Source: Antedon mediterranea (Eukaryota; Animalia; Echinodermata). From it: 64,000 bases of DNA. Location: contig NC_092674.1 of the NCBI RefSeq assembly GCF_964355755.1, positions 12,524,001-12,588,000 on the forward strand, in the 5' to 3' direction. A model generated the notes under the pieces. The model was not told the origin of the DNA, did no database searches, and worked only from the letters and a program-made list of their open reading frames with translations. Position 1 is the first letter of the stretch; the number at the start of each line of letters is the position of its first letter. The position numbers and the translations under genes are program-made. Below are positions 4,117 to 64,000 of this stretch, piece by piece.

Positions 4117-6495
4117 ATAATTATTTTGTTTTATTTATTGTAATGCGCCGTGTTCTTTATATCTTTGATTGTATATTGTTTTTCAATAAGCGTGCGGAGG
4201 ATTCAGGTAATTTCTCTTAGTATTAAAGGGTAACACCGCGGCTTTAAAATGTATATTGCTTATTATAAAATATAAACCTTTTAATCAACATTGGTATAAC
4301 CGTGCCTAATTTTAGACAGCACTCAGGCAAAAGTTTAGTAGCTTCTTTAAAAAAAAGTTGTTCTATAAGACAATACCACAGAACGCGTGGGAAATGGAAC
4401 TAATTCGCCTTAAAACACTAGTTTTAAAATATCATAATTAATTAAACTTTTAAAGAGCTGATAATCAGAGATGTGCGCGCGTGCAACTTAACAATAGAAA
4501 TTAATATTTATTTACTAAACCTAAAATTATGTTTTCTATTCGAGAAACTTTGTTGTTATGGGAACACAGTAATTGGTTGGTGTAACTTCACACTAACGAT
4601 ATGTTGAAACATTATATTAATTAGTCTCCTTTACATAGACCTTGGTCATATGCGATGATTTTAAATTCAGATAGCTTTAGTATTGATATTATGTTACTGA
4701 GGTGTAGTAGTATGCTACATGCAATGTGGGTTGTTAAAAATTTTAATTTATTGATGATAAAAAGTTTATTATTATTGTAACCGAATTAGTCATGATATAG
4801 GCCTACGATGAATTTAAATCAGTTTTTGCATCATGAGGTATAGTAGTATTATATTATTATTAACCGAATTAACATTTTTTTAGTTTTATAGAATATAAAT
4901 ACTGGTTCGTAATGTCCAACACTCCACACTAAACATGACCATGCAATTAATACTAAACATTGTATTACATTGACAAGTCAGAATGTTATGATTTACTTGG
5001 TATCGAAACTATACTGGATGACCAAAAGAAGACATACACTTTGTCAAATCATATCCTGTTTTGTATCGTTGGATAGTTTTAAACTATGAAATTATTTTAA
5101 CAATAATATTGTTTGTACATTATAAGTTTGATGTAGTCATTATTTGTTTATCATTGAAAGTGTGAAATGTTAGAATTAATAGTGATCTTTGAAATTATAA
5201 TCATGAATATTGTCTCAATGTTAATATTTAAAGTAATCTTTTCTTTATTTTATGTCATTTGACCCAAGCCTAAATAATATGAAAGCAATATTTAGAAAAT
5301 AAATATTATATATCTATAATCCGAAAGTGGATATTGGTATAATACGAATAATTAAACGACTTTCTCTCTGGGCTTCCGAATTAAGTGAAGTAGACATTAT
5401 TTTATTATGTTATTATATATTAGTAACGTTCTACCGCTATTTTTATTGAAGATAATCATGTAACTACTAATCACCAGATGTAAACAAACGCAGCGCATCA
5501 GAGGCCATTTAGATCCGACGAAGAGGAACCCAACCCATCAACAGAGACGAAGGCGCCCATCAGACACGTGAATCAACCTGTCTCTTCTTCTGAAGGATCT
5601 GTCTGAGCAGGACAGCGAAACTCCGAAACAGGTTAGTTTCACTAATTGTTTTTTTGTTGTTGAAAATAATTAATACATTTCACATGCCGTATCGTTACAT
5701 AAAATGCAGAGTGTAAATAATCTCCGCGAAGCCATAGTAGTTATGTCATTAACATGCATACCAGTCTAGGACAAAAATCTCAAAAGAGGCCTAGAAATCA
5801 AGATAGGGGAAGTGGAATGCTACAGGCAGTCAACATAGCCAGATATCAATCCCTTCTGATCACTCTAAGCTTTGTTGACACAATGTTTTGCCTAGACTAT
5901 ACATCACTTCAAGTCGTCTTCTAATACTAATACCGGTACGTGTAATTTTCACATGATATCACGCTTTTCTGATATCACATCGACCAAATTCGCTTCACTC
6001 GTAACATCTCATCCCCTCCCCTTAAAACTCATGTTTACTATTCTGTTGTACCATGATACCATGATACATTTCAAACATTCTTGTTTTGAAGATGTCGATA
6101 TCTTTTCGCCTCTGCTTATCATTACTGTCTCAAAATAATCCACGTCAACATTGGCAAATGGTGGGGTACCGCATGTTTTGACTTATTTTTCTCTTTTCCA
6201 TTTATATTTAATAAGAGTTTGCTCCGTTTATCCAGTAGGATGGCATGAAACTTCTATCACTGTGACCATACTTGAAATGAGTATCTTGAATAACGAAATC
6301 AGCAATAGTTGGTCCCATAGAAATGAAAGTTGGTTGCTTTTTAGTCGGCTGGAATTATATTGCTTTTACAGCCACAAAAAATTGTCAGTAGGCCTACTTT
6401 GGTTTTCAGTGTCAACCACAAAAACATCTACCCTTGCGCGTGTACTTTTCGCGAAAAATATTTGGACGTTTAGCTTAGCACATAAATTCCTGATT
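4117..6495. repeat. Segmental duplicate of ~40899-45115 (the latter interrupted by a Helitron)
   Basis: Collinear similarity throughout; ORFs 6151..6627 and 44886..45185 share TILEMSILNNEISNSWSHRNE. Confidence 0.9.
5480..5640 (+). mobile_element. Penelope-like 3' fragment (GIY-YIG C-terminus plus degenerate hammerhead); second copy ~42070-42235
   Basis: Translates EAI*IRRRGTQPINRDEGAHQ (EAVWIRR... in the 42 kb copy), sharing NRDEGAHQ with the element at 46.5 kb; followed by CTGAAGGA-TCTGTC...GACAG-CGAAAC. Confidence 0.7.
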
Positions 6496-8002: not shown

Positions 8003-9150
8003 CTGAAATATTACAAACATTATGTTATAGTATTTTCTCTCTCTAAACTAAGTATTATAATATTGTCCTGGAATCAATACGATGTGATCATTTAAAAATG
8101 ACGTTATAGATTTAAATTATGCTACATAGTTAAATTAAATAAAGAGTATTAACCCTTTTCTTTAAGATAATGTATTGTATACATATACATTTTTTGTCTT
8201 TCTTGTAGGCCTATAACATTTTTTTTACATTTTTTTATAAATTTATAAAACAAATAAGTGTTTTTTTCTTTTTTTGGCCTGAAAAGTAAACACTTCATCC
8301 GATAGTGCTAACTAGTCTGAATGTAAACTGGCAGTTACAGCTAAAAATATATCTAGGCTCCAAATTCTGTTCAGGTAACACACTTTTACTGCAAAATTCT
8401 TACAATGATTACGGAATCTATTACGAGAGGTGATGGAATTTTTCTTTGAACGTCAAAATAGAGCATTGGATAGGTTGGGTCTTGCAAAATTTAATGTGTT
8501 TCCTCAATAAAGTCTCTTATAAAAGTGAATCAAATTGAGATTTACTTAATTATAACTACTGTAAGTGAAGCATAACTAAAAATACGTTCCAGCTAATTCT
8601 TACATAGTGAATAATGATAATATTTTTAATGACAGATTTATAAAAAAAATAATTAGGCCTATGGGAGGTTTAACTACAAAAGATTTAAGTCTACGCAAAA
8701 GTAAAGTCTATTTGATACTCTCATTAATGAGGTCGTGCCATTTAGGATCACTACGGTAGTGATTTATTTGCAATCTCAACTTCAGATTGGGTACCGTACC
8801 GTATTTCATGATTTAGGTGATTTTCCTATTTTTGTTTGTTACTTTGGGTGGAATATACTGTATGGTACTGCAAATAAGTCAATCTATAATAATAACCCAC
8901 TACTCTAATATTAACCCATGGGGGTTACTCTTCAAGTCACAAAAACTTATGATACAGCTGTATTTTGAAAATAAGGAGATAATGCAGGTTGATCTTGGGA
9001 GTGGGGTAGGATTGAGTGTTTTTGAGTTCAAACAAATTTGTTTATTCGTACTGTTTTATTATTTTGCTATGAGTTGCGTCACTTTACTGATATTGTTTTT
9101 CTTTGTAAGATTTTCAATTCTAATATAATTAATACTGACAATTTTTTTAA

Positions 9151-12069: not shown

Positions 12070-12405
12070 ATATACGGCCATACTGCGTTGAAACACCGGT
12101 TCTCGTCAGATCACCGAAGTTAAGCAACGTTGGGCCCGGTTGCGTTCTGGATGGGAGACCGTCTTTGTGGCGGGTGCTGTATATACTGGAGAGTGATGGT
12201 GTAATGGTAATATCTGACTAGCATGTAATAGGCATGGGTTCGAGGTTATCTGTACCATACTAATTGCATCCTTAGGCAAGATGCTTTACTCTCATTGCCT
12301 AATCTTGTAGGCGCTGCACTGCTGGCTGCCGTGGGTCCGTGGAGGGCCTAATCCTAATTTCCTCACTGAGGACAAATATTAATACAAAATACAAAAAAAA
12401 AAATA
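12070..12405 (+). mobile_element. Chimeric SINE: 5S rRNA-derived head, tRNA-like segment, CORE/Deu-like central motif, A-rich tail
   Basis: 12070-12184 is 5S-like (TACGGCCATAC...GATCACCGAAGTTAAGC...TGGATGGGAGACC); TGGTGTAATGG and GGTTCGAG boxes at 12197-12245; CCTTAGGCAAGATGCTTTAC motif; AATACA/A tail; absent from paralogues at ~20219, 31192 and 38415. Confidence 0.8.
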
Positions 12406-12709: not shown

Positions 12710-14091
12710 AGTGGAGCTCCACCCAGAAAATTACTATTTTTCATACATTTCAACTATTATTTAAAAATATCATCCCTTATACTTCATATTTTTTTGAAAT
12801 TTTTTTCAATGAGTACGATTTTCTTGAAAATCACGCCTTTTTGCGTTTTGGGGGGATACCTTGTAATTTCCTATTCGTTTACATGCAAAAGGGGGGTATA
12901 TTTGAATAATCCTAAAAAATTCATTTCTTCACCAAAAAAAAAATGTAAAATGTATATTTATGTAATTTTTCCAGATCTTTCTATTTCTGGTATTTTTATC
13001 AGGTATACATTGCGCAATTTTGCGTAAATAGACACTTTCCCCCGTTCGGGTCCAATTGGGTTTTTTATTTTGCTAGGGAGTACGATCACGTGACATTTTT
13101 CACAATCACACTACTGCAGCTGGCGATCTGTTATTTTGTCGCGATGTTATTTTTGACGGGCGAAAAGTATATTAAAACATTCTGAATGTGACCCTATTAT
13201 GTTTCACAGTGTAATAATGTGATTATGAGACTATTACTAAAATGTCAAATTTAACGAGATTTGAGAAAGACGTGGCTATATATTCAATAAAGCTAGGCCT
13301 AGGCCTACTAGAAAGTGTAGGTATGTACCGATGCTGCGTGGCCTCTAGCTAGGCGGCTAGGCTGACAGCAGTGAAGTTTGTTTTGCTGGCACCCGACCTT
13401 GGCCTACCCATGGGCCATGATAGGGTGCCTGAATAGTTGCTTTTCAGTCAGGTCTAAGCTTGCACATCGCTTTACTACTCTTGTTCTGTATACTATAGGA
13501 TTTTGTGTTTCACAATTCTTAATGTGCGAGAAAACCCAGGAACGATAAATGGGGCGAAACGACCATGCCTATGAATACTTAGGCCTCTAGACAAAAATTC
13601 AAGGCTAGCTAGGCTGAGCACACGGCTGAGCTAGGCCTAGCCCTAGCTTAAAGTTAAAAGCAATCTGATAAGATTATTATGCTGTTGTTGTACAGTGAAA
13701 ATCACGAGGTTTACATGTAAATTATACTGACATTCTTATCGGAAATATTACTTAGGCCTAAACAAATCGTATTAATTGTGTGTATAAAATTTATTCCCCA
13801 TTTTTCGACACATAATTTACCCAAGGGGAGACATTTCATCAATGCGTTGAACGGCGACTAAAACGCGTCAGTCGCTAAGTGTAACGCGTTTTGCGACGTA
13901 TTGTAAACTAATAACCCATTAGTTACTGAAAAACTGTAATGTGTTAAAAAACACTATTTTCTGACCGATTTTTTAGAAATGAGTTTTTGGAAAATATTTC
14001 CGTATTTTTCCTGGTTTTTTTTATGTAATCACTTTCAATTAAACATACTTAAACATAATATAAGCTGAGAAAGTCTGAGTGTAGCTCCACT
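12710..14091. mobile_element. Non-autonomous Kolobok-like DNA transposon (1,382 bp)
   Basis: TTAA TSD (12706-12709 / 14092-14095); 18-bp TIR AGTGGAGCTCCACCCAGA vs AGTGGAGCTACACTCAGA; AG...CT ends fit Kolobok rather than piggyBac; empty site ATGTTTAAATCATGG at 20515. Confidence 0.82.
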
Positions 14092-15691: not shown

Positions 15692-18235
15692 TCTATATAT
15701 AAATTTACGTAAGGGCAAAATTCGGTAAATCGCGCCTTACTTCTAGAATTTTCACTCGATGGTATGTAAAGTTGGTTCGTACTTTCGGTACTGATTTTAA
15801 CCGCCTGATGTAACCCTGTTTACTAATTAAATTGAGTTAGATAATTAGTTATTGACGATTAAAACGAATTTAGGTTCAAAGATTTGCCCCAAATAGGGGT
15901 GTTTTCCGATCGTGGTATACACTGTCTAATGGATGTCCATCTTGAAAAATACCCGCCAAAAAAATGCGAGGAGGCTTCGCATTTTTCTATCTCCTCCTAC
16001 GATAATTGTTTTTAATAGCTGAAAACCGGTTGAACAGCTAGAGTACACCATCATAATGTTGAAGACAGGCCGATTTTCTTTAAAAAATACTATTTTGATA
16101 GATTTAATATACGATTATACAAATGTATTGATTTACGATGAATGGAACATCCCAATCTCTCAGTCTGCCAGAGTTTTAACACAAGTACTGTAGGTAAATT
16201 TATGAGCCCTTGGTTTAACACATACGGTAGGTAAATATATGGGCCCTTTGAGAATAAACTTGCAATACTTTGACAATACTGTAAATACCTATTAACTATT
16301 TTTCATTTGAATCGAACATTTCTTACTGTGAATGTTCGTACTGTTAGATGTAATATAAAAATATATACAAATAAACTTTATTACTGAGACTGTGGATAGG
16401 CTCTACTGTTAGATATACAAATAAACTTTATACTGACAGTTCCTTCTCAACGTTTGTATTAATTAATAATTACCAAAAATATAAACGTCGTAGTGGTGTA
16501 TCATGACATGTACTTTAATATTTCAATCGATTATGACAGTGACAGTTTTAACAAAGTATTAAATCGCAAATGTTTTAGGCCTACTGTATTTAGAGGTATA
16601 TTATTTATAGGCCTATAAAACATGAACAAAATATTTCGTTACTCAGTGGATAAAGAATATATTTAAAAATTGTTCCTCTTTGTACCTATCCGCTTTCCCA
16701 TCCCTCAACCCTAATGTTACATAGCGAGGAGGCTTCGCATTTTCCTATCTCCTCCTACGATAATTGTTTTTAATAGCTGAAAACCGGTTGAACAGCTAGA
16801 GTACACCATCATAATGTTGAAGACAGGCCGATTTTCTTTTAAAAATACTATTTTGATAGATTGCTAGAGTACACCATCATAATGTTGAAGACAGGCCGAT
16901 TTTCTTTAAAAAATACTATTTTGATAGATTTAATATACGATTATACAAATGTATTGATTTGCGATGAATGGAACATCCAGTTTGGTTTAACACAAGTACT
17001 GTAGGTAAATTTATGAGCCCTTGGTTTAACACATACGGTAGGTAAATATATGGGCCCTTTGAGAATAAACTTGCAATAGGTTCGGAAAATGTTAAAAAAC
17101 CAATTTCTATTATTTTAATCGGTAAACAGTTTCCATTTATTATACATTGATAATGAAACATGAAATATTCCTTTTTATGTCCCTCGAGGTTCATTACAAT
17201 TTATATTTAGTAGTCCCACGGACTTCATCTTAGCCACTCCCCCGAGTGCTAAGGCCAAATTTATGATACCCTACTTTCTATGTAAGTTTAGTTACAGTTA
17301 GTTCTTGACGATAATACAACGAATTTAGGTTACACCCTTCGGCCGCGAAAACGTTTCTGTACAAATATGATACCGATTGGCTTTATTTCATTCAACAGCG
17401 ACCATAATCTCGCCAATTACAGGATAGATAAACTATTTTATTATTGATGTGCTTATAAATTAAGACTCATGTAAACAGCTTGATTACATCATTTTACAGA
17501 CAAACGAAACTTTTTTAAACCTACTGTTTCAATAACTGAGTATAATACTGTATACGTTTTCATAAGTAAGTGCATATACATTTTCGTGTTTTCATTGACG
17601 AGATTGTAATAGTAACTTCAGTAACTATTACAGTACTTATTTATTATACGACACAAGACAATTGTATCTGACAGGTACGTACATTATTCTAAAAAATAAG
17701 TCTAGATAGATCCCTTAGGCGTCATAAATCACAGGCCAACAAATCAGTACTCATGACAGAAATTCGACCCAGTTTGGTTCACACAAATGTTTACAGGAAG
17801 TTCAACACCACAACCGATGATTTGCCCTAAATATTTAGGTAGACTACAGTTTAATTTTTCACTGAATAGGAGCTTGAATTTCCGATTTCCATTTCGCAGA
17901 ATGTCTAGATCTATTTATTTAGTTTGGTTCTTATAATATATAAATACAATCAACTTTATTACTGCGGTTCCATCACCACAACCACGTGCCGCCGCCCAAT
18001 TCCCGTACATACATTTCCATTTCTCCCTAATTTCTTTAATCCACATAAATTAATTGTCCTTTATGGAATCCAGTATTGGTTTTGTTGTCTCTATTTCTGA
18101 ATACCCCAATTAGGGGGACACTTCCGTTTTTGTTTAGTGTCCCAAAAAAGTCCCCGTCCGTGGATTCTACTGTATTCGAGAACCATCTGTGAGCACCCCT
18201 AGATGGTACGCGAGCGAAGCGAGCGTGCCATCTAG
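15692..18235 (+). mobile_element. Non-autonomous Helitron of the same family as 9151-10585, opposite orientation, with internal duplications
   Basis: 5' TCTATATATAAATTTACG; 3' hairpin 18199-18235 ending CTAG|T; ~16724-17075 duplicates ~15966-16266. Confidence 0.85.
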
Positions 18236-20009
18236 TTTCATTAATTTTCTTATTTTTTGTTATACACTTGACAGGATCATCATTATCATCTATCCCGTTT
18301 TAAAATAGTTCACACATTTTCATTTGTTTGTTTTCATTTTACAACCCGGATTATACAATATATTTATATACATGATAAAAAAACAATAATAGCTCAGTAC
18401 CACCAGTAACCCGTATCACTGTAATTCTTTTTCGGTTAATCGTATCAAATTAGAAATTATATTATCATAATCTTATTTCTTAAAGCTACCCATTTTTCTA
18501 TACTTGTTTCTTTATTGTTATATGTTTCACATTCAATGTTATATAACATATTGCTTTTAAATGAATTCCATAAAGATTTACCCACTGGCTTATTTAGTGC
18601 AGATAACATTTTTATTCTATAAATAGTAAATGCTGCAAAAGTGTAAAAATAATCTATTAGCTTATCTCTCGTTCCTAGTATTAATTGTTTAAATGATATA
18701 TTATTTTGATTTAAACTTACAAAGATACTAAGCATTTTCCCAGTGAAATCCGCAACTTAAATATTTCTGTTAGTTCTTTTAATAAGCCAAATTACTTAAT
18801 TATCTCAATATTTATTCTTTAAATAATGTTGATATTGAAAAAGTGTCTAGTTGGTCGCTTTCTTGTAGATGCTTTAATTGTAGAACGTAAATTATTAATT
18901 TTTCTTATATGTTTCTGTTCTGGTTTGACAAACTAGCAAAGGTGTTTAGCACCTGTTTGGTCTTTCCGTGCCTCCTTTTATAATTGTTTTGTCTTCTTTT
19001 TTATGTATATGGCAGAAATTGAATAAATAAATAAATAAACACGGTATGTATTCAATTATCTCAACACAAATACCAATTTAAATGCAATGGTTTCTGTGAT
19101 TAGTTCTTTAGTTCTTTTAAATATGTCTACTATAATCTTTCCATCTCTTCTGAAAACTGTTTTCAATACAATCAATTGCCTGTTGTAGATACAAACAAGG
19201 AAAACGCTTATTCATCATTACTAACAAGTAAGTTATCAATGCTAGTTATTTCTTCAGGTTGATGTACTTACATTTCCATCACATAACCCTTACTTTCTAT
19301 CACGTAAAGTATTAAGAGTACACGCCGGTTCATGTGCGCCATATTATTGCTCATATAATCTTTACTAAAATAATTTTGCAAGCACGTTAATGTATTGATT
19401 CAACATTACTTTGTTTATCAATATTAGGGTTGTATATTCATATGAAGTAATAATATTAACAAGGTCAACACTCGGGAAACCACATTTTCTGGAAAAAATC
19501 AATGGATTTGATACTGCATGACATTTTTTTTCTGTTATTAACCATAATAGGAAGTAAAAATAAAATGTCAACTATTGCTATATGTTGGGGTTAAAGGTCA
19601 CCAAATACAGGTCAAAAATACAAAAAAAATCATATTTTTAAAATAAAACCATTATAATAGTTTAGATTCACGGTGATTCTAGAAACAGCAGCGAATTTAT
19701 CAAAACTGTTGTTTTTGCTCTTTTAAATTGAAATTGCATGGTTTCTCCCAGTTTCCATTGTTAACAAGACACTATTAAAATTTACCAAACATAACATTAT
19801 TAGTGGATTTATATTTAATATGTCTTCTTCCTAAACAATATTAAAAATTTTGGATTGCCAAATTTACCATTTTTGAACTTTTGGCACACTTTGAATTGAT
19901 TCTGTCCCACTGTGCCATGGGCCAGGAGCTATTCCTTTATTATTCTATTTTTTTTTAAATCGGTAATCGTGATCCTTTATAACTTGTTGCATATAATGTG
20001 CCAGCGTGC

Positions 20010-21230
20010 TACGTTCTAGACATTGGAATAGTAAACAACTAATAGTAAAAATAACTTGAAACGAATTGTAAACGTCTGTCCAGCATTAGAGATAATCTTA
20101 AAATTCTCTTCTGGAAAGAGGTAATAGATGTATGGAGTAATTTTATTTCTCTTCATTATCCAAAGTCTGTTGACGATCTATTACGAATGCAAATTTGGAA
20201 TAATGAAGTAATAAGAATAGGCAACGAATGTATAAGATATGGACATTGGGAAAAAGCAGGTATTCTGTTTGTTAATGATTTGTTTAACAGCAATGGGCAA
20301 TTTATGAACAAAAAAGAAGTCGAAGATACATATGGAATTAAGATAAATTATATAAAATTAATAGGATTAAGGAGGCTTCTTATGGAAAAATTTAACAATT
20401 TAATGATATGGGAAATAAAAAAAACTGTTTTGCCATATATTCCATTTCATATAAAAAGTACTCTTTCAACAAAGAAAGGGATGTCGTATTTTTTATGATG
20501 TTTTAAATAACTCAATGTTTAAATCATGGAAAGCACAAAAGAAATGGGCAGAGAATAAATTTGTATTCAATAACGAACAATTGAAAACAATCTACCTAGA
20601 TCCACATACGTGTATAATGCATATTGTTTTAATATATTTTCAATATAAAATTGTAAACAGAATAATTGCAACAAATGAACAATTATTTAAAATTAATATA
20701 AAAGAAACTTCAATGTGCTCATTTAGAGATGGTAAAATTGAAACCATTTTGCATTTGTTCTGTAATTGTCGAATAGTAAAAAGGATATGGAACCTCCTCC
20801 AGGAAAAAAATATCAGAAAAAACTTGAGCGCATTTATTTTTAGTAAAGAGAGCTATATTTTCGGATACCAAGATGCGCATCAGTTTTATAATTTAAAAGT
20901 CATTAATGCAATTATTCTAATTGTAAAATCATTTATTTATAGTTAAATGTAAGCCAACTATCAAAATGGTTATGAACGAGTTAAAAAGGTTTTATGAAAC
21001 GGAAAAATGTATTTATCATCAGAATTTCCAGGACAGTATTTTAAATAGAAAATGGATAAAATTAGAAGCAGTTATAAATCAAATATGAAATTGTTAGAGA
21101 TTAGAATAATTTTTATGAACCTTTATTTAATTTGTGAGATGGATATCTTTGTTGTTTTTTGTTTAATTTTTATTTTTTATTTGATTATGTTTTTCCTTTG
21201 TAATGTATTATAAGATGGAAAAAAAAAAGT
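20010..21230 (+). mobile_element. L1/Tx1-like ORF2 3' fragment (zf-RVT) with poly(A); copies at ~11880-14750, ~30985-32205, ~38210-39400
   Basis: ORFs 20187..20498 and 20515..20946 contain FQYKIVNRIIATN and CSF...ETILHLFCNC..VKRIW; frameshifted; A-rich end. Confidence 0.85.
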
Positions 21231-24200
21231 AAACAACCAAATAAAAGTGAAATTGGGTAGACTTGTAAATGGTAGTTGCGAATTAATTGCCATTTCTTAC
21301 AAAGGGAGCATACCGCCTCTCGAAACTACGTATTTTGGTACCTGGATGTGTATAGCATGGCCTCCGGATGTCTACGCATGAGCTGGACCAACTTCTAAAT
21401 ATATTTACTCTATAAATATTTCTTACAGAGGGACACCGCCAGATTAAGTGCGTCCTATCACTAGTAAGTAACTTGATTCTGATTTCTAACTACAGGACAG
21501 ATATTGACGCGTAAACCACAAAGAAAATGAGTTTGTGAATTAGTAGACGTTTTACTGTAATATTAAATATATTTGTTACTAAAAATTAGTTTGATAAAAT
21601 ATATTCTACAAAATTAGTAGGCCTAATCGTTTTCCCCTAATAAATTAAGGGGATGGGGGGTGGGGGCACGTGTTTGTTTATGAGTGAGAATCAATAAGGC
21701 ATTTAGTTAAAATGCAGACCGTCTTAAATTACTGGACATGTTCCGATAAATATATTCTCATCATCAGAATTGTAATCAAAGCCTAGAATACTTGTATACG
21801 TACAAAGTTGCGTTTAAATGAGTCAATCATTAGCATGAGAATAGATTTATCGAAACATGTCACGTAATTTTAAGATGGTCCACATTTTCATTAAATGCCT
21901 TATGATATTATTGATTATCAATCGTAATTTGGTGGTATTATACATGATGTGCCTGTTTATATACAGTGAAAGAGCTTATTTTAGTATCCTATAGTAATAT
22001 AGTTTCTATATAAGAGAATATGTTATTTCAAATCAGGTACAAAAGCCGACGATCCAAGCGAATTACATGTTTAAAAAAAATCGGAAAACACTCATTTGTT
22101 ATTTTCAAAACACATTGAAAATCGGCGCGGTCCGATGGCATTCGTGACTGGCGGAAAAACGCAACAAAAATGAAAAACGAAAATGGCATGTTGTGTTTTC
22201 TGTAGGCCTATACAGTAATTAGTTTCTCAGATACCACCGTTTACAGTAGTATAATTGGGTGTTTATTTCAAGCTCATATCAACGGGCAAAGAAATCCTCG
22301 TTATTAAAAAAAACATATTTAAACTTATTCACTATAGTATATTTAAATTATCTACTTATTACTTTATTTATATATTGTTTTCTCTTTTTACTTGGTTAGA
22401 TAAAACAAACGGAAAACATTCTAGTTGAAATTGTTTATGTTAATTATATCCACAGATTGCACTATTTTCTTTATACTTAATTAGGTAATCTTTTCGTACT
22501 GTTGGGAATTGATAAATATTTCAGTTCAATTATTTTCCAAAATAGTGGTACACAACAATGAAAGAAAACAACATTTTTGTTACGTTCTTGTCATTAGAAA
22601 TATTCTTGCGACTGAGGTGAACTTCGAAAATGCCGGTCAGATATAAAAAAAAACAGTTACAAGGAATAAATTAGCAATTGTCACTGCATACTCATCCATC
22701 AAACTAGCCTACATCGAGAAAATATTTAATTCTATGAATCTTATGATGGTTAGTTTTATAGGAACAATAGTACTATTTTTATTTGTTTTGGCAATTAATG
22801 CAATTAAAGCGTAATTAATTCGTCATATTCCATTTGGAATACTACGTCCTGTAAAATGACTATAGAATGTTCTGATTTGTTAATTTTTAAATTATATTAT
22901 AATATACAGAATTATATATTATTTAAAATGTTCGGGTAGCTTCCATGCATGCGGCTTTTGGCCTTAATGGAAGTCCTTTTGTATATTTTTTCTTTTTTTA
23001 CAGTATAATTTAATTTTGTTTAAACTACAGGCGTGGCCCGTGAAAAAAAAAATCAAAGTATATGTATCGCCGTCAACGGCAAATATTGGAGCAGATCAAA
23101 AACTACATCAACCGGGAAATCACGAAATCAATTTTATACCGCGGACGATTGAAAATCTGCCGATGAAATCAGAAAGGTTGTTTTAACACCTTTTATAATA
23201 TCTGCCTAAGAGAGAAATATTATTAAATCTACGTTTCGCGTATCTGAGATAGATAATGTAGGTATGCAAGGCGGAAATCTTTTTCCATTGTGCTCAAAAG
23301 TAACCATAATTTAAGTATAGATACACTAACATCGTGGAGCACATTTAGCTCGTAGTATCATGTACGTGCACATAGCATCGCATTGGTAAGTCACAAACAT
23401 ATTAGTGAAATGCACAACACTGCAGTAATATTTATTAAAACATAAAGGTTATGAAATAATCAAATTAAACAAATGTCTATCCTTACACGTACGAAAAAAA
23501 CACCAACAGTTATCTAACAACACGAATTCCTTACCTTCGCGCAAACACTGAAAGAACGAATGATTATTTATTATGCTTAATTCTGGAATAGGTATGCACA
23601 ATGTAAAACGCATAGCACCAACTCCTTGTCGGTTCTTACCCCAGCTGTTCCATTCATCTAATATCTTAGAAAAGATAGTATTAGTGTTTTTAATGTCTTA
23701 TGTCATCGGTAGACTTTTAACAGTCATCGGTAAAGTTACTTCCGAGTTCGTCATCACTTTACGATTTCCAACTTCGCTGTATAGTCCCAATAAAACCTCT
23801 GTACAAAACGCTTGCAGCTGTCCCACATATGAACGTGGCATGTACATTTGATATACATTTGAGTCCAGATAGTTCATGTTTCTCTCTTTAAACGTCAAAA
23901 TGTACTAATTTGTATTAATTATATTGTAGAATACTATGGTTTGGCTATTTAATATTATTGTAACTCAGACTGTTTAAAACTTAATGAAGAAATAGCTCAT
24001 AATGTGTAATATGTTATAAATTCTGTATACACTACGATAGGACGTGACGTTATTATTATATTACAGTTGTAGACTATGTATAAATTTTATAATGTACCGC
24101 GATGGTAAGATTCGCATAGAAATTAATAATATTACAAGTAATAAATATTAATTTATAAAGATTAAACAAGTTATTACAAAGTTTGACATCAATTGTGACA

Positions 24201-24462
24201 AAACCTTGGTTAATCTGACTTTCCAATGTCAAGATTAACCATGACGAGGCAGTGGTGTTCCGAACCATGTGAGGGATACAACCGTGCAGTTCTCGACAAT
24301 TTAGTCATCCTCGCCACAAAAATGGTCTGTAATATGACCCACGATGTGCTTGCTTCATTTAGGTATGTTATTATTGGCACGCCCTTTATATTGTAAAATT
24401 AAACACTTTTTTAAATCACATTGAATTATATAGCACATATTATTTATGTGTGTAACACTTAC

Positions 24463-24561
24463 TTTGGTCTGAAGATCCAATTGAGCACCTTCCTTGAGCA
24501 AAATGGAGCAAACATCTGTGTGGCCGTTTTTTGCAGCCACATATAAAGGTGACGCTCCAAT
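24463..24561 (-). CDS. Ankyrin-repeat exon, IGASPLYVAAKNGHTDVCSILLKEGAQLDLQTK
   Basis: Inside ORF 24355..24579; 99 bp, canonical splice sites. Confidence 0.9.
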
Positions 24562-26910: not shown

Positions 26911-27114
26911 CAACACAAGTATAGAGTGAGTAGTAACCAATCTACACTCTTGGACACAACAACAAGTAACACAAAGGAACACAGAGAGCAACACAAGTAA
27001 AGAGTGAGTAGTAACCATTCTACACTCTTGGAAACAACAAACACAAGAAACACAAAGGAACAGAGACGTACAAAGAGCAACACAAGTAAAGGATGAGTAA
27101 CCAATCTACACTCT
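26911..27114 (+). repeat. About 2.5 copies of a 78-89 bp tandem repeat in the LTR element leader
   Basis: CAACACAAGTA...AGTAACCA(A/T)TCTACACTCT starting at 26911, 26989 and 27078. Confidence 0.85.
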
Positions 27115-38500: not shown

Positions 38501-41500
38501 TGAACAAAAAAGAAGTCGAAGATACCTATGGAATTAAGATAAATTATATAAAATTAATAGGATTAAGAAGGCTTCTTATGGAAAAATTTAACAATTTAAT
38601 GATATGGGAAATTAAAAAAAAAACTGTTTTGCCAGATATTCCATTTCATATAAAAAGTACTCTTTCAACAAAGAAAGGGATGTCGTATTTTGTATGATGT
38701 TTTAAATAACTCAATGTTTAAATCATGGAAAGCACAAAAGAAATGGGCAGAGAATAAATTTGTATTCAATAACGAACAATTGAAAACAATCTAGCTCCAC
38801 ATACCTGTACAATGAATATTGTTTTAATATATTTTCAATATAAAATTGTAAACAGAATAATTGCAACAAATGAACAATTATTTAAAATGAATATAAAATA
38901 AACTTCAATGTGCTCATTTAGAGATGGTAAAATCGAAACCATTTAGCATTTGTTCTGTAATTGTCCAATAGTAAAAAGGATATGGAACCAGCTCCTCCAG
39001 GTAAAAATTTAGAAAAAACTTGAGTGCAATTTATTTTTAGTAAAGAGAGCATTATTTTCGGATACCAAGATGCGCATCAGTTTTTTAATTTAAAAGCCAT
39101 TAATGCAATTATTCTAATTGTAAAATCATTTATTTATAAATGTAAACTAGTTAAATGTAAGCCAACTATCAAAATGGTTATGAACTAGTTAAAAAGGCTT
39201 TATGAAACAGTATTTTAAATAGAAAATGGATAAAATTAGAAGCAGTTATGAATCAAATATGAAATTGTTAGAGATTAGAATAATTTTTATGAACCTTTAT
39301 TTAATTTGTGAGATGGATATCTTTGTTGTTTTTTGTTTAATATTTATTTTTTATTTGATTATGTTTTTCCTTTGTAATGTATTATATGATGAAAACAAAA
39401 AATAGTAAACAACCAAATAAAAGTGACATTGGGTAGACTTGTAAATGGTAGTTGCGAATGAATTGCCATTTCTTACAAAGGGAGCATACCGCTTCTCGAA
39501 ACTACGTATTTTGGTACCTGGATGTGTATAGCATGGCCTCCGGATGTCTACGCGTGAATGGGCCAACTTCTAAATATATTTACTCTATAAATATTTCTTA
39601 CAGAGGGACACCGCCAGATTAAGTGCGTCCTATCACTAGTAAGTAACTTGATTCAGATTTCTAACTACAGGATAGATATTTGTTAATTTCAAAACATATT
39701 GCAAATCGACGCGGACCGATGGCATTCGTGACTGGCGGAACAACGCAACAAAAATGAAAAACGAAAATGGCATGTTGTGTTTTCTGTAGGCCTATACAGT
39801 AATTAGTTTCTCAGATACCACCGTTTACAGTAGTAGAATTGGGTGTTTATTTCAAGCTCACATAAACGGGCAAAGAAATCCTGGTTATTAAAACAAAACA
39901 TATTTAAACTTATTCACTATAGTATATTTAAATTATCTACTTATTAATTTATTTATATAATGTTTTCTCTTTTTACTTGGTTAGATAAAACAAACGGAAA
40001 ACATTCTAGTTGTTTATGTTAATTATACCCACAGATTGCACTATTTTCTTTATACTTAATTAGGTAATCTTTTTGTACTGTTGTGAATTGATAAATATTT
40101 CAGTTCAATTATTTCCCAAAATAGTGGTACACAACAATGAAAGAAAATGTGAAAACGACATTTTTGTTACGATCTTGTCATTAGAAATATTCTTGCGACT
40201 GAGGTGAATTTCGAAAATGCGGGTCAGATAAAAAAAAAACAGTTACAAGCAATAAATTAGCAATTGTCACTGCATACTTATCCATCAAACTAGCCTCCAT
40301 CAAGAAAATATTCAATTCCATGAATCTTATGAGGGTTAGTTTTATAGGAACAATAGTACTATTTTTATTTGTTTTGGCAATTAATGCAATTAAAGCGTAA
40401 TTAATTCGTCATATTCCATTTGGAATACTACGTCCTGTAAAATGACTAGAATGTTCTGATTTGTTAATTTTTAAATTATATTAGGCCTATATACAGAATT
40501 ATATATTATTTAAAATGTTCGGGTAGCTTCCATGCATGCGGCTTTTGGCCTTAATGGAAGTCCTTTTGTATATTTTTTCTTTTTTTACAGTATAATTTAA
40601 TTTTGTTTAAACTACAGGCGTGGCCCGTGAAAAAAAAAATCAAAGTATATGTGTCACCATCAACGGCAAATATTGGAGCAGAGCAAAAACTATATCAACC
40701 GGGAAATCACGAAATCAATTTTATACCGTGGACGATTGAAAATCTGCCGATGAAATCAGAAAGGTTGTTTTAACACCTTTTATAATATCTGCCTAAGAGA
40801 GAAATATTATTAAATCTACGTTTCGCGTATCTGAGATAGATAATGTAGGTATGCAAGGTGGAAATCTTTTTCCATTGTACTAAAAATTAACCATACATAT
40901 TATTTTGTTTTATTTATTGTAATGCGCCGTGTTCTTTATATCTTTGATTGTATATTGTTTTTCAATAATAATAAGGTAATTTCTCTTAGTATTAAAGCGT
41001 AACACCGCGGCTTTAAAATGTATATTGCTTATTATAAAATATAAACCTTTTAATCAACATTGGTAATAACCGTGCCTAATTTTAGACAGCACTCAGGAAA
41101 AGTAAAGTAGCTTCTTTAAAAAAAGTTGTTCTATAAGACAATACTACAGTCTGTACGCGTGTGAAGTGGAACTAATTCGCCTTAAAATACTAGTTTTAAA
41201 ATATCATAGTTAATTAACCTTTTAAATAGCTGATAATCAAAGATGTGCGCGCGTGCAAATTAACAATAGAAATTAATATTTATTTACAGAAGCTAACATT
41301 ATGTTTTCTATTCGAAAAACGTTCTTGTTATGGAACACAGTAAGTGATTGGTGTAACTTCACACTAACGATATATTGAAACATTATATTAATTAGTCTCC
41401 TTTACATAGACCTTGGTCATATGCGATTATTTGAAATTCAGATAAGTTTAGTATTGATATTATGTTACTGAGGTGTAGTAGTCTGCTACATGCAATGTGG

Positions 41501-42806
41501 ATTGTTAAACATTTTAATTTATTGATGATACAAAGTACATTATTATTGTAATCGAATTAGTCATGATATACGATGAATTTAAATCAGTGTTTGCATAATG
41601 TTATGAGGTATAGTGGTATTATATTATTATTGTAACCGAATTAACATTTTAATGTTTTATAGAATACAAATACTGGTACGTAATGTCCGACACTCCACAC
41701 TAAACATGGCCATGCATTTAATACTAAACATTGTATTACATTACATGTCAGAATGTTATGACTTACTTTGTATCGAAACTATACTGACCTAAGGAATACA
41801 TAGACTTTTGTCAAATCATATCCTTTTTTGTATCGTTGGATAGTTTAGACCCAACCCTAAGTAATATGAAAGCAATATTTAGAAAATAAATATTATATCT
41901 ATAATCCGAATGTGGATATTGGTATAATATGAATAATTAAACGACTTTCTCTCTGGGCTTCCGAATTAAGTGAAGTAGACATTATTTTATTATGACGTAC
42001 ATTAGTAACGTTTTACCGCTACTTTTAATGAAGATAATCATGTAGGCCTAACTACTAATCACCAGATGTAAACAACAAACGCAGCGCATCAGAGGCCGTT
42101 TGGATCCGACGAAGAGGAACCCAACCCATCAACAGAGACGAAGGCGCCCATCAGACACGTGGATGAACCTGTCATTTCTTCTGGTGAAGGATCTGTCCGA
42201 GCAGGACAGCGAAATTCCCAAGCAGGTTAGTTTCACTAATTGTTTTTTTTTTCGAAAATAATTAATACATTTCACATGCCGTATCGTTACATAAAATGCA
42301 GAGTGTACATAATCTCCGCGAAGCCATATTAGTTATGTCATTAACATGCATACTAGTCTAGGACAAATATCTGAAAAGAGGCCTAGAAATCAAGATAATA
42401 ATAATAATATTAATAAGATAGGGGAAGTGGAATGCTACAGGCAGCCAACATAGCCAAATATTCTATTTAATCTCTTCTGATCACTCTAAGCTTTGTTGAC
42501 ACAATGTTTTGCCTAGACTATAGTCGTCTTATACTAATACCGGTACGTGTAATTTCCACATGATATCACGCTTTTCCGCTAGACAACATCGACCAAAAAT
42601 CTCATCCCCTCCCCTTAAAACTCATGTCTACTATTCTGTTATACCATGATACCATGATACATTTCAACAAACATTCTTGTTTTGAAGATGTCGATATCTT
42701 GTCACCTCTGCTTATCATTACTGTCTCAAAATAATCCACGTCAACATTGGCAAATGGTGGGGTACCGCATGTTTTGACTTATTTTTCTCTTTTCCTTTAT
42801 ATTTAA

Positions 42807-44830
42807 CTAGCAATTATACCCGCCCCAAGCCGGGTTTCAAAATTAGTTTAAAGCCTTCTCTGTACATAACACCCGACGCCAGTATCTCCGTATACGCACC
42901 AACCTCCACCCCTTAATAACACCCCACACTCTTTCCAGTGAAGGACAAATTCAATTAAACTTTAGCTTCAAATTGAGAGGGCATACATAATAGATATGAT
43001 AGGCATATGGCTTAAGTACGTTGTAAACTATGTAAATGAGTAGGTGTTATATTGGCTGATAATTAAAATATATAATGTTGATACTGCGGTCCCCCGGTCT
43101 TCTTTCTCCTCTCACCATCGCAGCCGCAATTAACAAACCTTACCTCCTCCCCTGGACAGTTCAAATAGGCCTAGTAAGTTTTCGTAGTACAATTCAATCA
43201 TATAGGCCTAGGCTACTTCATTACGCCAGTATTTTCTCTCCTCTTCCCAACCCACCCCATAAACCGGGTAATGTTTTTAAGACGGTTCCAGTACAAATTA
43301 TTTTAGCCATCACTCCCAACCCATAATCCCTCAGTGGCAGTTTTCAAATGTAGTTTAAAACATTCCCAGTTTCGGTCATGGTGATAGGCCAACATCCTCA
43401 CCCAAAAATCCCAGCCGTTTCCCAGGAATAATTAAATACTGTAACATTTTCCCTCCACAATTCTGGTCAATTTGATAGCCTACTATTCTTAGCCTAAGCA
43501 AAATCCCCACTATCCCCAACGCGATTTATTTTTCGTACATAAGTTGGGGACCCCCTCATGAAACGTCACAAAATAAACATGAATAATTCATCAGTTAAAT
43601 TTTCTTGCTCTGTGTGCACCCAAGCGTATAAAAGAATAGCGGCGTTTTGTGTGGAATTTTGAAATAATCTGTCATTAGTTTTTGGGTTTTTTTTTAATAG
43701 AATTTATTACTAAAGAATTACGTGTTAAAATTATAGTTTCTATTAATACTATTAGGCCTAATTATTAGTCTCTAAAGCTTGTATCTATTCTAGTAGTCTG
43801 TGTGGGTGTGTGTGTTACTGTTAGGTACTCCGAGTAATAAGTACACACAATGTATTCTCGTGTTCATATACGCGCATTTTTAAAGTTCCTTTGAGTACAT
43901 GCATATTGTTTGATAATAAAATAACAGAATTAAAAAATTACAGTACACAAAATTATACACATTCTTTATTCTCGTGTCTAAACTTTCTTTGGGCTATGAC
44001 CAATACTACTTAGTTGCATGTGTCTTGCCTAGCTGTCGATTAGTCTCGACACATTTTGCATAGTGGTAGTGTGTGTGTGAAGACTCCTCAAGAGTGCGCC
44101 AAGGCAATCACGTGAATCCTAGGCCTAGGAAGAATCGTATCGCAGTTGTAATAATTGCTATACGCTTGGGTGCACACGGAACAACAAATCATGAGGGGTC
44201 CCCAACTCATGTACGAAAAAAAAATCGCATCCCTAACAGCCTATCTCCACTACTCCTAGCCTAAGCAAAATCACCACTATCCCCTGAACCCCAACCGTAT
44301 CCCCCAACGCCCCTCTACCACAATGGGCGTTTTTTCCTTGGAGGCATGGTGATGTAGTTGAACACAGTAACAGTAAAGAACGTGTATATGTTCACACAGG
44401 AATGGATGTATTCAAATACTGTAAAACTGTTGTAGTATAATTTTACAATTCGATAGCCTACAACCACGAGCCCTAGCAAAAATGACATCACAAACCACCA
44501 GACCCACCCCCTCCCACAAAAACCCCAGGAGTCGGGGGAATAAATGTAGTTTAAAACCTTCCGGGTACAATTGCCATCATTTTGATATCCCATATGTATG
44601 GTTACATGCAGAAACAGAAATTTGTATAACGAACAATCATCGAAAGTGGGGGTTTTGACCACATTTTGGTCCCTAACTTGGATCCTAGGTGGTGGATGAT
44701 GTTCAAATATAGCTTAGAACATTCCCGGTTCAATTGCGGTCATTTTGATACCCCATATGTAAGATTACGTGCAGTAAAAACAATTTGTATAATGAACAAA
44801 CAAACAAACAGACAAACAAACAGTCTCTCT
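42807..44830 (-). mobile_element. Non-autonomous Helitron-like insertion, 5' end lost
   Basis: CTAG at 42807 with adjacent CCCG...CGGG hairpin; (CAAA)n microsatellite at the other end; absent from the paralogue at ~6210-6220. Confidence 0.7.
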
Positions 44831-46334
44831 CTCCGTTTATCCAGTAGGATTCACTCAGCTGTGTTGGCATGATACTTCTATCACTGTGACCATACTTGAA
44901 ATGAGTATCTTGAATAACGAAATCAGCAACAGTTGGTCCCATAGAAATGAAAATTGGTTGCTTTTTAGTCGGCTGGAATTATATTGCTTTTACGGCCACA
45001 AAAAGTGTCAGTACTCTGGTTTTCAGTGTGAACCACAAAAACATCTACCCTTGCGCGTGTACTTTTCGCGGAAAAATATTTGGACGTTTAGCTCAGCACA
45101 TAAATTCCTGATTAAAAGTATAAATTCGCGTTACAGTGTGCTACATCGACGGTCGAAAATAACCGTTGAACAAAAAGTCATGTAGCTAGATCATTACGTA
45201 ATCTTCAACACGCCAGTTAATTCATAGAAAGTTAGCTAACTTATTTCTCCATGATAGAACAAAAGAGTCTAACACAATTATCGGGTCCTGATGAGTTGTA
45301 GGTCTAACTTGTAAAAGAAATATAAAGTTGGTTGAGTATGTTTCAATGTTTCGGAAGCTTTACTGTACTTGTTTATCTTTAAACTGCATCATCATTTTTT
45401 TTTTCAGATTGAACTTAACTGATTTTAAATCAATTGGAGCTCATCAGTTATATACATTATAATGATTTCAGATTTGACAAAATAATTAAAACTGATTACA
45501 TTAAATGTTTTAATATTTACATAAACAATGGTACGAAGACGTAAACTTATTGTGAACTTCTGCATTTAAATTATATTATTAAGAGGTTAATTAGGCCTAT
45601 TTCAAATAACAGTTCCGAATAATTGGATGTGTTGCTTATTCTCGAAATTGTCTTTTATTTCAAACTCACATAAACGGGCACTGAAATCTCCGTTATTAAA
45701 CACATTATTTTAAGCTTATTCAGTATTATTTAATAGTATTATTCAATTATTTATATATATATATGTTGTTCCTTTTTCTTCTTCTTCTTCTTTTTACTTG
45801 ATTAGATAAAACATGTTAGTGAGAAAATGCCCATATTTTAGTTAACATTTATCATCTAATGATATTATTTTAAGTATACCCACAAATTGCACTTTTTATG
45901 TATACTTAAATAGGTTGTTATTTTCGCATATTTGTTGCTGTTAAAATAATAAATATTTCACTTAAAAAAACTTTCCAAAAACAGTGGTACACAACAACGA
46001 CGACAACAAAGATGTGAAAACAAACTCTATTTTACGTTCTTGTCACTATAAATATTTTGAACGATTGAGTTGGAAGAAAAGGTGCGTTATGTGCAAAGGT
46101 AAAATAAAAAAAAAGATATTTCAAAACCAGTGTTACACTGTAAAAATGATTTCGGAAAAGACACAAATAAAGCATTATTAATCAGCAATTAGCACTGTCT
46201 ACTCATCAACCAAACTACTGCACCAAACGCGCCGCAAAGCAAATATTCAATTCACAGTCATTCATTTTTTATTTTTTTTTAAATAATGTATGTACTATGA
46301 AAACATTTCTTCTGGTTTCGATTCGTATAATGAT

Positions 46335-49512: not shown

Positions 49513-52169
49513 CTGAAATAATAACACACATCATGTTATAGAAGTAGTAGTATAGTCTTCTACAAAAAGCTATTTAATATTGTATTGAAATCTTTTCGAT
49601 GTGATCAAGTAAAACTAGCTTAAACACCAGGTGAGGGCAAACAAATTATATTGATCTTGCATTCCAATATCTATAGTTTCCCCTATGTTTCATAATGTTT
49701 GTGATTGTATGTGTGTTACACGAGCTTGTTGAAAATATGCACTTTATTATTAGTGGGGGATAGTTCAAATTACACAATAAAATCTCTATTCATGTGTACA
49801 CAAATGTTGTAAATAGAGAGGCAATTTAAAAAAACTAAAAATAAACAGTGTGGTAAAAAATGTTATCAGAGGACTGAATATAGATAATACTTCATAGTTT
49901 TATTTTCATGCTATAGCAAAAATTATCCACCGTTTATCAACCATCTTTTTTCATCTTCTATAGAGTCACCAGACATGTAATTACACTAGGTTCAACTACT
50001 TAACTACTGAAAAAAGTCTTACTGGTTTTTATAGCAGAATTTTACAAAATTGTGTATTTGACCATTTTAAGGGAAATCCACTTGTTTTCGTCTTGATGTC
50101 TATTACAATTATTTGATTTCTATTACAATTATTTGATTTATGTACAATTTACCAGATATTATATTTAACATTGTTGCCTGTACCTAAGCTTTAACTTAAA
50201 TAAAGATTATTAACATTTGATGTTTTCTTTAAGATAATGTATTGTATATGCATGCATTTGTTTTGCTTGTATATTATTTTGTTATATAGTACGGTACTTT
50301 TATACGTAGCATTTATATATTGCAAATTCGGTAAGAAATTGTGGTCCTTAATATGCATGAAAGATGGTACTAGTTCTGCTACCTGTTATTTTGCTACAAT
50401 TGTCAAAGAACCTATTGATACAGTGCACTGATTGCGTAGTAGAATACTGTAGTTTGATACGGTTAGTGTAATTTTGCGACGGTTGAAAACTTCAACCTTT
50501 AACATTTTTTGTTGGAGACATTGATATACGCACTGTCATATGGAACTTTTAAAGTTAAAACAGCCCCAAATCATATATTATGATAAAGTGGTGTTTGCGT
50601 TTGAACTGGCAGTTACGACTAAAATGTATCGAGGCCCCAAAATATGTTCAGATAACACATTTTGACTGCTAAATTCTTAACTATTGGTTTCATTTTGCTG
50701 TTACTGGTAGAGGATATGTTTAAACAAATTTTTTTACCAAATCAAATGAATACGTCGATTCATATCCATTTTGTGTACCATTTTAATAAAATCGTGTTGC
50801 TCTGTAGGCTACATCACAATATATACAAAAACAGAAAAATCACCATTAAAAAAATCATTCCCTAATATTTAGTACTCTAAATGGTAAAAACTATTAGGAA
50901 ATCTATGTGTATGAGTTGTGATGGACCGCTTCCTTGAACTTCAAAAATGAGATGGGTTGGGTCTTGCAAAATCAAATGTGTTTTCTTAGTAACGTGATCG
51001 CTAATCAATCAAATTGAAAATATACGTGAAGCATAATTAACAATACATTTGAGTTCCAACTTATCCTTACATGTGGTCTCGGTAAACCATGCACCAATGA
51101 TAAAAGTGAGAATACTTTCAATGACCGATTTATTAAAAAAAAACGCAGGCCTGATGGGAGGTTTAACTTCAAACTATTTAAGTCTATGCAAAAAGTAAAA
51201 ACGTTGAGCATGGGCCTTAGTAATAATACTTATTGTCGTGCCATTTAAGATCTCTAGTGATTTATTTACAATGTCAATTCTAGAGGGGGTATTTCTGTCA
51301 CAGTCAAAAGTGACGGATATGTAAAGTTAAACGCAAAGGGTAATTTGCATAGAACTAGTCAGGTGTATTACCGTATAAAAGAATTGCGGAGGAATGTAGT
51401 AATTACACCTCACATCAACCTTGTAGAGAAGGGAGGTGTCGCACCTCAGCAACAATACAGATTGACCATTGTAAGTAAGATACTCATTTATTGTAAGGCT
51501 ATATACTTATAATACTATATACTTGTAATAACGATAATGTATAGGTTACAATGTGATTCTGTGCTAACGTAGATAATTATAACAATTAAACGTTAACGTT
51601 TGTTTGTAGTGCTGCCCGTTGGGCTGAAGTTGATTTGTAGTAAATCGTAAACCAAGCCGAGTATACACATGCTTGTTTATGTATGATTGGAATGTAATTG
51701 GTAGTGAACAAGTCCACACAGAAGTGACCGGCGGAAAAAGAAATAAAGACATTCAGTTGCTAATATTATATATCTGTATACTTTTAATTGCGTTCTTCAG
51801 TGGCCATATAGTTCAATCTGGGCGTAACAATTTCATACTGTAGGTGATTTACATTTTGTGTTATAAAATGTCGAGTGTTTCACCTGCTTTGATAGAAACT
51901 ATACTGTAATGAGTTGAAAATGTAAACATATTAGTATATTAGTAAACCCATGATGTACTGCAAACCAAACTTGTGTATTTGTGCACATAATAGTAGGTGA
52001 CATTTGTATAATTGAGACCGTTTTATTTGATACGAACAAGCATGTGAACTCACAAAAAACCTACATAACCATATAATGTAGTACATTTTGAATGTTGACA
52101 TGATATGATAAACATTAAACATGTTCATTCTAACATAGATTTTTCTCAGATTACACCACTATCACGTTT

Positions 52170-58487: not shown

Positions 58488-59427
58488 TGTAAAAACAAGT
58501 AAAACAGAATAAATTAGCAATTGTCACTGCATACTCATCCTTCAAACTAGCCGCCATCAAGCAAACACTCAATTCACACTCATTCAGATAAACAAAAAAA
58601 TGCACTTATTTTCGGATTATTTTTTTCTTACTTAATTTGTGTATTATTTTATATTAATGTACATCGTTTTTATTTAATATTATGACTCCAATTATATATT
58701 GGAAATAAGGATTTGATCGAGTCGACTTTAGATTTGCAAGTAACAGAGAAGCATTTCTCTTGTCCGTTGTCAGAAGGTTATTGAATCTTTGTTGATGATT
58801 TCTCTAATACCTATATGTAATTAACCGCTTTACGTCAATCTGTGTAGTAGGTACTAACAATAATATGTATTAGAACTCTAGTAACTGTCCTTTTCTGATA
58901 TCTATCTTCGACTCAATGTATTTCATTTCTTTCATGAATATGAACAGTTTATCTTAAATGAAAGTTGAATTGAATTTGAATTGCTTGTTTATTGTATTAA
59001 CCATTTTCTGTAATTTTAGTATTAATTTCTTTAAAATGAATCTTATGAGCGTTAGTTTTACAGCAACAATAGTACTTTATTTAACATTTTATAATAAAAA
59101 TAAATTACCTTGGATATGAATAAGTACAACACCGTGTTTGATATTATCAAGAAGTGATAACAGTAAACAATTGTATGAATATGCTTGATAAATAAATAGA
59201 CATAGCAGTCAATGAATTATTCAACAATTAGTATAATTGTGTTTGTTTTAGAATACAATATTGTGTGTATAAATGTACGTGGCGGAGCGTTTATTAGAGG
59301 GTGGAGGTTGGATATTCCAAAGATGTTTTATTGGCGAGGGGCGTTTATTCAAATATTTGCGGTAGGCCTAATTGGTATAATCAATATATTATTTAGTTTA
59401 AATCAAACACCAAGTAATGACAATCAT

Positions 59428-63369: not shown

Positions 63370-64000
63370 CTGAAATATTACAAACTATGTTATAGTAATT
63401 TTTCTCTAAACAAAATATTATAATATTGTCCTGAAATCAATACGATGTGATCAATTAAAAATGACATTATAGATTTAGATAATGCTACATTATTAAATTA
63501 AATCAAGAGTATCAGCCCTTGATGTTTTCTTGAAGATAATGTATTGTATATGTATACATTTGTCTTTCTTGTATAACATTTATTATATAAGTGCTTTATA
63601 AATCTATAAAACAAATAAGTGGGGTTTTTTTGCCTTAAAAATAAACACTTCATCCGATAGTGCTAACTAGTCTGAGTGTAAATTATGATAAACTGGCAGT
63701 TAGCTAAAATATCCATACTTTAAATTCTGTTCAGGTAACACATTTTGACTGCTAAATTCTTATCATTCATGGTTTCATTTTACCGTTACTTGGAGGGGAT
63801 ATGTTTTTTTAAATGTTTTATAAAATCAAATAAAAATCTCGATTCATATCTATTTATTTTATCATTTTGCATAAAATACAGTGTTGCTCTACAGTACCAT
63901 CCAAAAACAGAAAACTGAAAAAAAAACACGAAATATCATTCTCTAACATTCAGTGCCCTAAAGGCATATGGTAATGATTACAGAATCTATTACGAGAGGT

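Follow-up and report, generated by a model that had tools for sequence, protein, structure and literature searches.

Does the octamer TAGGCCTA, which recurs along a 64-kb stretch of the Antedon mediterranea genome (contig NC_092674.1, positions 12,524,001 to 12,588,000; hereafter the window), arise by insertion of six bases at TA dinucleotides, and if so, what leaves it behind? How often DNA transposons excise in natural germlines is difficult to measure, since the element itself is no longer there. With a fixed and recognisable scar, excisions could be counted in genome alignments and assigned dates. Such a scar would also show that these breaks are repaired by germline end-joining and not by homologue copying in these animals, and would point to a source of small insertions. 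TAGGCCTA is also at risk of being taken for a regulatory motif, falsely, in motif searches of echinoderms and other invertebrates.

The window, with a G+C content of 32%, contained 30 TAGGCCTA sites in 24 distinct contexts. When recent duplicates were masked before counting, 20 sites were found in 46,064 non-redundant bases, compared with 0.46 expected under an order-2 Markov model (an excess of about forty-fold) and 1.3 under an order-3 model, which corresponds to a distinct site in every 2.3 kb or so of this sequence. Under both models TAGGCCTA ranked first in over-representation among 7- and 8-mers, and the preliminary description of this DNA, according to which the octamer recurs throughout and should be weighed against a Markov expectation, was borne out for the window. 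The CpG ratio near the sites (0.95) was similar to that of the entire window (0.90).

Three other mobile elements (12710-14091, 43521-44228, and 56353-58487) contain seven of the 30 sites, which may have been copied along with them. The element at 12710-14091 is a 1.38-kb insertion with AG...CT inverted ends, TTAA on both sides, and four motif sites; it is missing from the copies near 20520 and 31497, and by its end rules we take it to be Kolobok-like. The 708-bp element at 43521-44228 has long inverted ends, a 9-bp near-perfect duplication, and two motif sites, and is presumably Mutator-like. The 2.1-kb insertion at 56353-58487 has CAGTGGG...CCCACTG ends and duplicates the 4 bp TGTA; it is missing from the copy near 22647, is skipped in contigs, and gave no transposase match. 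To our knowledge, CAG ends are not usually combined with a duplication of 4 bp.

Ankyrin-repeat exons on the minus strand (24358-24606, 49306-49530, and 54125-54322) sit in mutually aligning blocks, so the paralogues compared here are mostly duplicated segments of an ankyrin-gene cluster. The cluster includes a 7.2-kb tandem duplication (19187-26441 and 30190-37417) with 98.7% identity, and the contigs of public run X1 suggest many further copies of these segments. A 3.7-kb LTR element at 26442-30189, with identical 357-bp LTRs, TG...CA ends, and a 5-bp duplication, is a recent, internally deleted Gypsy-type copy; its ORF at 27246-29066 encodes SCAN, a zinc knuckle, and a protease fused to a C-terminal piece of integrase, without reverse transcriptase. 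Other insertions include a likely 5S-headed SINE at 12070-12395, derived from 5S rRNA (Rfam 5S match at 12070-12185) with an A-rich tail and a duplication of ~10 bp, and a 414-bp insertion at 2180-2593 with an 8-9 bp near-duplication, which we assume to be hAT-like. A reverse-transcriptase fragment at 46328-47775, presumably Penelope-like, has 27-bp inverted arms and is skipped in contigs; the part at 47177-47749 matched an Antedon mediterranea protein with 98% identity over 67% of its length, which places the host among the crinoids, in or near Antedon. The ~60 bp at 53470-53530, with very high contig depth and hundreds of loose ends on each side, is a short, very abundant repeat.

Four places had been named at which one paralogue carries TA and the other TAGGCCTA. 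All four, coordinates included, were reproduced as exact six-base indels with clean flanks and an alignment ambiguity of 2 bp, so that GGCC plus a second TA distinguishes the filled from the empty copies:

4798..4805: TAGGCCTA scar; TA in the sister copy at 41569-41570
41569..41570: empty TA, partner of the 4798 scar
6389..6396: TAGGCCTA scar; TA in the sister copy at 45012-45013
45012..45013: empty TA, partner of the 6389 scar
8206..8213: TAGGCCTA scar in an intron-like stretch adjoining an ankyrin exon; TA at 63572 and 50270
63572..63573: empty TA, partner of the 8206 scar
50270..50271: empty TA, second partner of the 8206 scar, in a more distant copy
42043..42050: TAGGCCTA scar; TA in the sister copy at 5461-5462
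5461..5462: empty TA, partner of the 42043 scar

The 8206 scar was passed on to recent duplicates at 24764 and 35740. Of the sister segments 4120-6211 and 40899-42806, each has one motif missing from the other. These comparisons confirm that the recurrent TA/TAGGCCTA difference, probably a micro-insertion, is real.

Nine independent motif loci had a paralogue with less than 93% identity. The partner was without the motif at six of them, four cleanly and two with an adjoining indel, and kept a decayed motif at the other three (21618/15139, 59363/1098, and 8654/51146). Further sites of this kind, and related forms, are as follows:

16576..16583: TAGGCCTA; missing in the inverted (minus-strand) copy near 9562, with a small indel adjoining
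16606..16617: TATAGGCCTATA; 8-bp gap relative to the inverted copy near 9535, TATA on both sides
40482..40489: TAGGCCTA; missing in the copies at 22898 and 33874, net 3-bp gap
21618..21625: older scar, common to 32594; decayed form TAGGCATA at 15139
59363..59370: older scar; decayed form TAGGCTTA at 1098
8752..8758: TACGGTA; TA at 51255; 5-bp scar, built alike but with a different core
13294..13307: double scar TAGGCCTAGGCCTA; no paralogue
43203..43215: TAGGCCTA overlapped by TAGGCTA; no paralogue

The site at 16576-16583 had been proposed as a fifth case. The motif is indeed missing from its partner, but the comparison is not clean given the small indel alongside, and we regard it as a likely micro-insertion. 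The copies at 22898 and 33874 differ from the 40482 copy by 3.2% substitutions, and the 40482 event is recent. Motif events therefore range from old to recent. The double forms at 13294-13307 and 43203-43215 suggest a repeat hit on a re-created TA. At 54048-54055, GAGGCCTA stands in place of ~30 bases found in three paralogues, which may be a scar with a flanking deletion, or chance.

Are these events insertions or deletions? Clean indels between paralogues occurred in 158 distinct contexts. Eighteen were six bases long, and a tabulation of these gave TA/TAGGCCTA for four and no other indel bounded by TA on both sides. The chance of random six-base deletions striking the motif this often was P ~1e-8, and that of deletions between TA pairs four bases apart, for which the window offers 895 TA-N4-TA sites, was P ~1e-6. 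At these 895 sites, six-base TA-to-TA indels were confined to the motif, which speaks against the view of an old or selected motif, such as a protein-binding site, and of the indels as deletions between TA copies. Some observations do fit that view: the divergent paralogue retains the motif at three of the nine loci; a 4-bp TA/TACCTA indel at 38792 is deletion-like, with the long form in the more distant copy; and at 8206 TA is present in two other copies but the three lineages are not rootable. A selected site should persist, yet the paralogue is without the motif at six of the nine loci. TA is the majority state at 4798, sites lie within introns and other mobile elements, and deletion leaves the origin of the TAGGCCTA excess unexplained. 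We consider an old or selected motif very unlikely.

The majority state at 4798, the one site that could be polarised by majority of copies, came from the run X1 contigs over 4700-5620. The six letters were missing in 16,446 of 21,806 units of contig depth (75%, 6 contigs); most of this multi-copy family thus shows plain TA. Contig depth is a rough measure, and these contigs are collapsed and come from one sample. The 12 of 29 rows listed for the run X1 contigs included no insertion at 5461, and the best 12 of 425 indel rows from contigs over 41800-61700 included no scar row. The contig rows listed included no GG-starting loose ends. The four public runs, all from one sample, contain 0.41-0.48 of the window words. 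Overall, insertion is favoured over deletion, by copy majority at 4798 and by parsimony (one gain per sister copy) and the indel statistics at the other sites, so that the direction originally proposed was supported on these different grounds.

The contig data also bear on an assembly or library artefact. The motif is palindromic, and the TAGGCCTA core contains a StuI restriction site; palindromic shape is all that points to an artefact. Decayed copies are found at paralogous positions, scars are inherited through recent duplications, a separate run has roughly one-quarter of its depth at 4798 without the gap, and an identical indel is present in unrelated assemblies. An artefact is hardly credible on these observations.

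What process, then, inserts six bases at TA? The preliminary description had suggested a transposon excision footprint, and of this idea the shape stands: TA plus element ends plus TA fits excision of the Tc1/mariner kind. We think that TAGGCCTA is probably the end-joining footprint of a TA-duplicating transposon of the IS630/Tc1/mariner/pogo type, with an element bearing GG...CC ends as the candidate donor. The leading candidate for this donor is a pogo/Fot-like element with G-run ends. Such an element would land at TA and duplicate it. By the known chemistry of the group, its transposase would cut two bases in from each terminus, so that each flank was left with a GG overhang, and germline end-joining that retained both overhangs would give TA-GG-CC-TA. 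Trimming of one base would give TAGGCTA/TAGCCTA. Scars would then decay by substitution or travel within gene duplicates and other mobile elements, as is partly seen in the window.

The internal structure of the sites was compared with this scheme. The GGCC core does not vary; the flanks are unrelated to one another and no different from those at the TA sites of the window in general, so the core is neither a copy of the flank nor a hairpin product. In the non-redundant window, TAGGCTA/TAGCCTA occurred 12 times compared with 4.0 expected (threefold, P 0.001), and TACAGTA/TACTGTA 34 times compared with 13.2 expected (2.6-fold). The non-redundant window showed no excess of TAGCTA, TACATGTA, or TACCGTA; one-sided TAGGTA/TACCTA was not in excess in the window either (31 compared with 26.6 expected), and longer G-run forms were absent from it.

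The element itself, the other half of the excision idea, was not encountered: no TA-flanked element with terminal inverted repeats and GG...CC termini was present in the window or the fetched contigs, and large insertions between window paralogues showed none at an empty or filled site. A scan for DDE transposases covering 132 of the 139 window ORFs, and the 60 longest ORFs from the metagenome loci described below, was negative. In viral contigs, a Fot-like start pattern gave three matches, all without an inverted partner. A ~3-kb "element" in locus L124 (9515-12529), with 26-bp GGC-starting inverted repeats, was rejected: homology continues beyond the TA on both sides, the repeats are two inverted copies of an inner repeat part, and the ORFs resemble the neighbouring duplicated gene. 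A catalogue of pogo elements (Gao et al. 2020, PMC7386202; sequences given to 400 letters) yielded no animal element with a TA-GG start in the part of supplement 3 covered, namely parts 1, 64, and 65 of 67 plus search matches; other rows may contain GG-ended animal elements whose starts differ. Within the same coverage there were 26 TA-GG starts, of which 25 were mammalian Tigger motif cells and one was from Entamoeba (PMC7386202).

Metagenome contigs were scanned for three close motifs, which gave 117 stretches, and 116 loci were analysed. Many resemble eukaryote host DNA, with exon-split genes, a SOCS box, and reverse transcriptase, and the motif-bearing contigs are probably from animals. 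Within repeats of these loci, TA/TAGGCCTA made up two of 10 six-base indels and TA/TAGCCTA one of eight five-base indels. Viral contigs with two motifs (121 loci) yielded nothing informative. In the metagenome contigs at L173:3936-4540 and L193:512-1559, TAGG/CCTA words are packed as if the spots had been struck repeatedly.

For motif counts we used 42 loci, selected on length, G+C, and the presence of one or more further motifs; the matched cluster was masked, and a duplicate locus was removed. Several organisms are mixed in this set, and TAGGCCTA, at 101 compared with 2.2 expected, is inflated by the selection of loci for the motif. Among distinct contexts in the 42 loci, TAGGCTA occurred 99 times compared with 20.2 expected. 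Other forms were TAGGGCCTA (11 compared with 0.9 expected), TAGGGGCCTA (7 compared with 0.18), TAGGGGGCCTA (1 compared with 0.04), and TAGGGCCCTA (0 compared with 0.09), and the metagenome contig series as a whole reads TA-G(1-5)-CC-TA. In 43 metagenome loci, TACATGTA occurred 15 times compared with 4.3 expected and TACCGGTA six times compared with 1.3.

The series bears on an element of another group with GGC...GCC ends, of the PIF/Harbinger or ISL2EU type, or on GGC overhangs that anneal via GC; parsed differently, AGGCCT would be placed between T and A without duplication. PIF/Harbinger elements with GGC ends occur. Annealing via GC would account for one dominant scar with TAGGCTA/TAGCCTA as the next commonest forms. 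However, GGC ends do not predict the G-run series, and a variable G run with a fixed CC is better fitted by G-run ends than by GGC ends annealing via GC. The window is without longer G-run forms, so the metagenome series leaves the Antedon element unsettled. A 3-bp TWA duplication around the core was not seen, with a 2-bp ambiguity and zero counts for TAAGGCCTAA and TAAGGCCTTA in the non-redundant window; the full fill-in product TAGGCGCCTA had no occurrences, and the window contained no GGC-ended element at TA. PIF/Harbinger elements also duplicate 3 bp and generally excise without leaving element bases, according to the sections of PMC4561436 at hand. A GGC-ended donor is thus unlikely in our assessment.

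Could host repair supply the G residues? In this scheme, telomerase, supplying the GG(G) that comes after TTA, or a terminal-transferase-like activity adds G to each 3' TA break end, and head-to-head joining gives GG and then CC. It would explain one core in unrelated animals and the variable G run without a ubiquitous element family, and no donor element was found in the window. Against it, the telomerase version predicts T before TA, but T precedes TA in 13 of 48 window flanks (background 0.34), which is no excess; in the metagenome loci purines are favoured at this position (P 8e-7) and T is depleted (41 of 199). Forms with four or five G are not telomeric; the window contained just one telomeric 9-mer. 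Untemplated addition is unlikely to yield two plus two so regularly, and similarly built scars whose cores differ (TACAGTA, TACGGTA, TACATGTA, and TACCGGTA) match known element ends. Staggered breaks at TA would still be required from some source. G-adding by the host therefore seems to us quite unlikely as the origin of the motif.

A broader reading is tentative, and we would sooner doubt it than accept it: that a single exact 6-bp scar ranks among the leading classes of germline insertion in several animal phyla, arising from uncatalogued GG-ended, TA-targeting transposons or from undescribed G-adding host repair. If true, the scars would amount to a genome-wide record of transposition, and of repeated use of the same TA, in which events can be counted and dated, and the version with uncatalogued transposons would imply very high cut-and-paste turnover and efficient germline end-joining.

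The excision footprint that we prefer was compared with known systems. In Tc1/mariner excision, the transposase cuts the non-transferred strand at a point some bases within the element, and end-joining then leaves 2-4 terminal bases between the TA copies, as in the TACAGTA/TACTGTA footprints of Sleeping Beauty (PMC6943129, in part). Mariner and Stowaway elements likewise leave TA plus end bases plus TA, while PIF/Harbinger elements make three-base duplications and generally excise precisely, without element bases (sections of PMC4561436). The pogo element Passer leaves footprints of 0-4 bp (PMC9976928, in part), and the portion of PMC2874221 at hand restates the general footprint model and nothing more. 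Sailor (DD82E) duplicates TATA and has GT or CC ends (PMC8533490, in part). It was set aside as a donor: a 4-bp TATA ambiguity occurs at 16606-16617 only, and the four clean sites show 2 bp. Among the rows covered of PMC7386202 supplement 3, animal Fot-like elements have CCGT or CAGT starts with TA duplication, CCG ends included, and so fit the TACGGTA and TACCGGTA scars. GG-rich Fot-like starts occur there in other groups, one Entamoeba element having GGGG ends and TA/TA; most GG-ended Fot-like rows show TAA or TAAA duplications (PMC7386202).

A comparison of rice genomes gave 94 putative natural excisions (PMC4423477, in part), of which 8 were clean and most were messy. In C. elegans, such breaks in the germline are mostly repaired from the homologue and end-joining acts mainly in the soma (PMC13148408, in part). 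A single dominant germline scar would therefore need unusual end-joining. In the literature covered, which leaves out most subscription journals, we found no account of TAGGCCTA as a genome-wide scar and none of a comparable scar density in natural germline DNA.

As far as these sources go, the IS630/Tc1/mariner systems (Sleeping Beauty, Tc1, and Osmar14/Stowaway) share with the present scars both TA copies and 2-4 constant bases between them, which in those systems come from the element ends. They differ in that the Sleeping Beauty core is CAG/CTG and the core here is GGCC, and in that their footprints come from assays or somatic cells, whereas ours are fixed or segregating germline scars. 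The natural excisions in rice are similar as small indels in aligned genomes but differ in that one exact scar recurs here. PIF/Harbinger elements such as mPing, in the sources covered, also cut and paste at TA-containing targets, but their 3-bp duplication and precise repair are unlike the 2-bp duplication with a retained core seen here. Pogo/Fot-like elements and Passer share the TA duplication in many of their members, here without a transposase found. The type of footprint is already known; its GGCC core is new and its abundance unusual.
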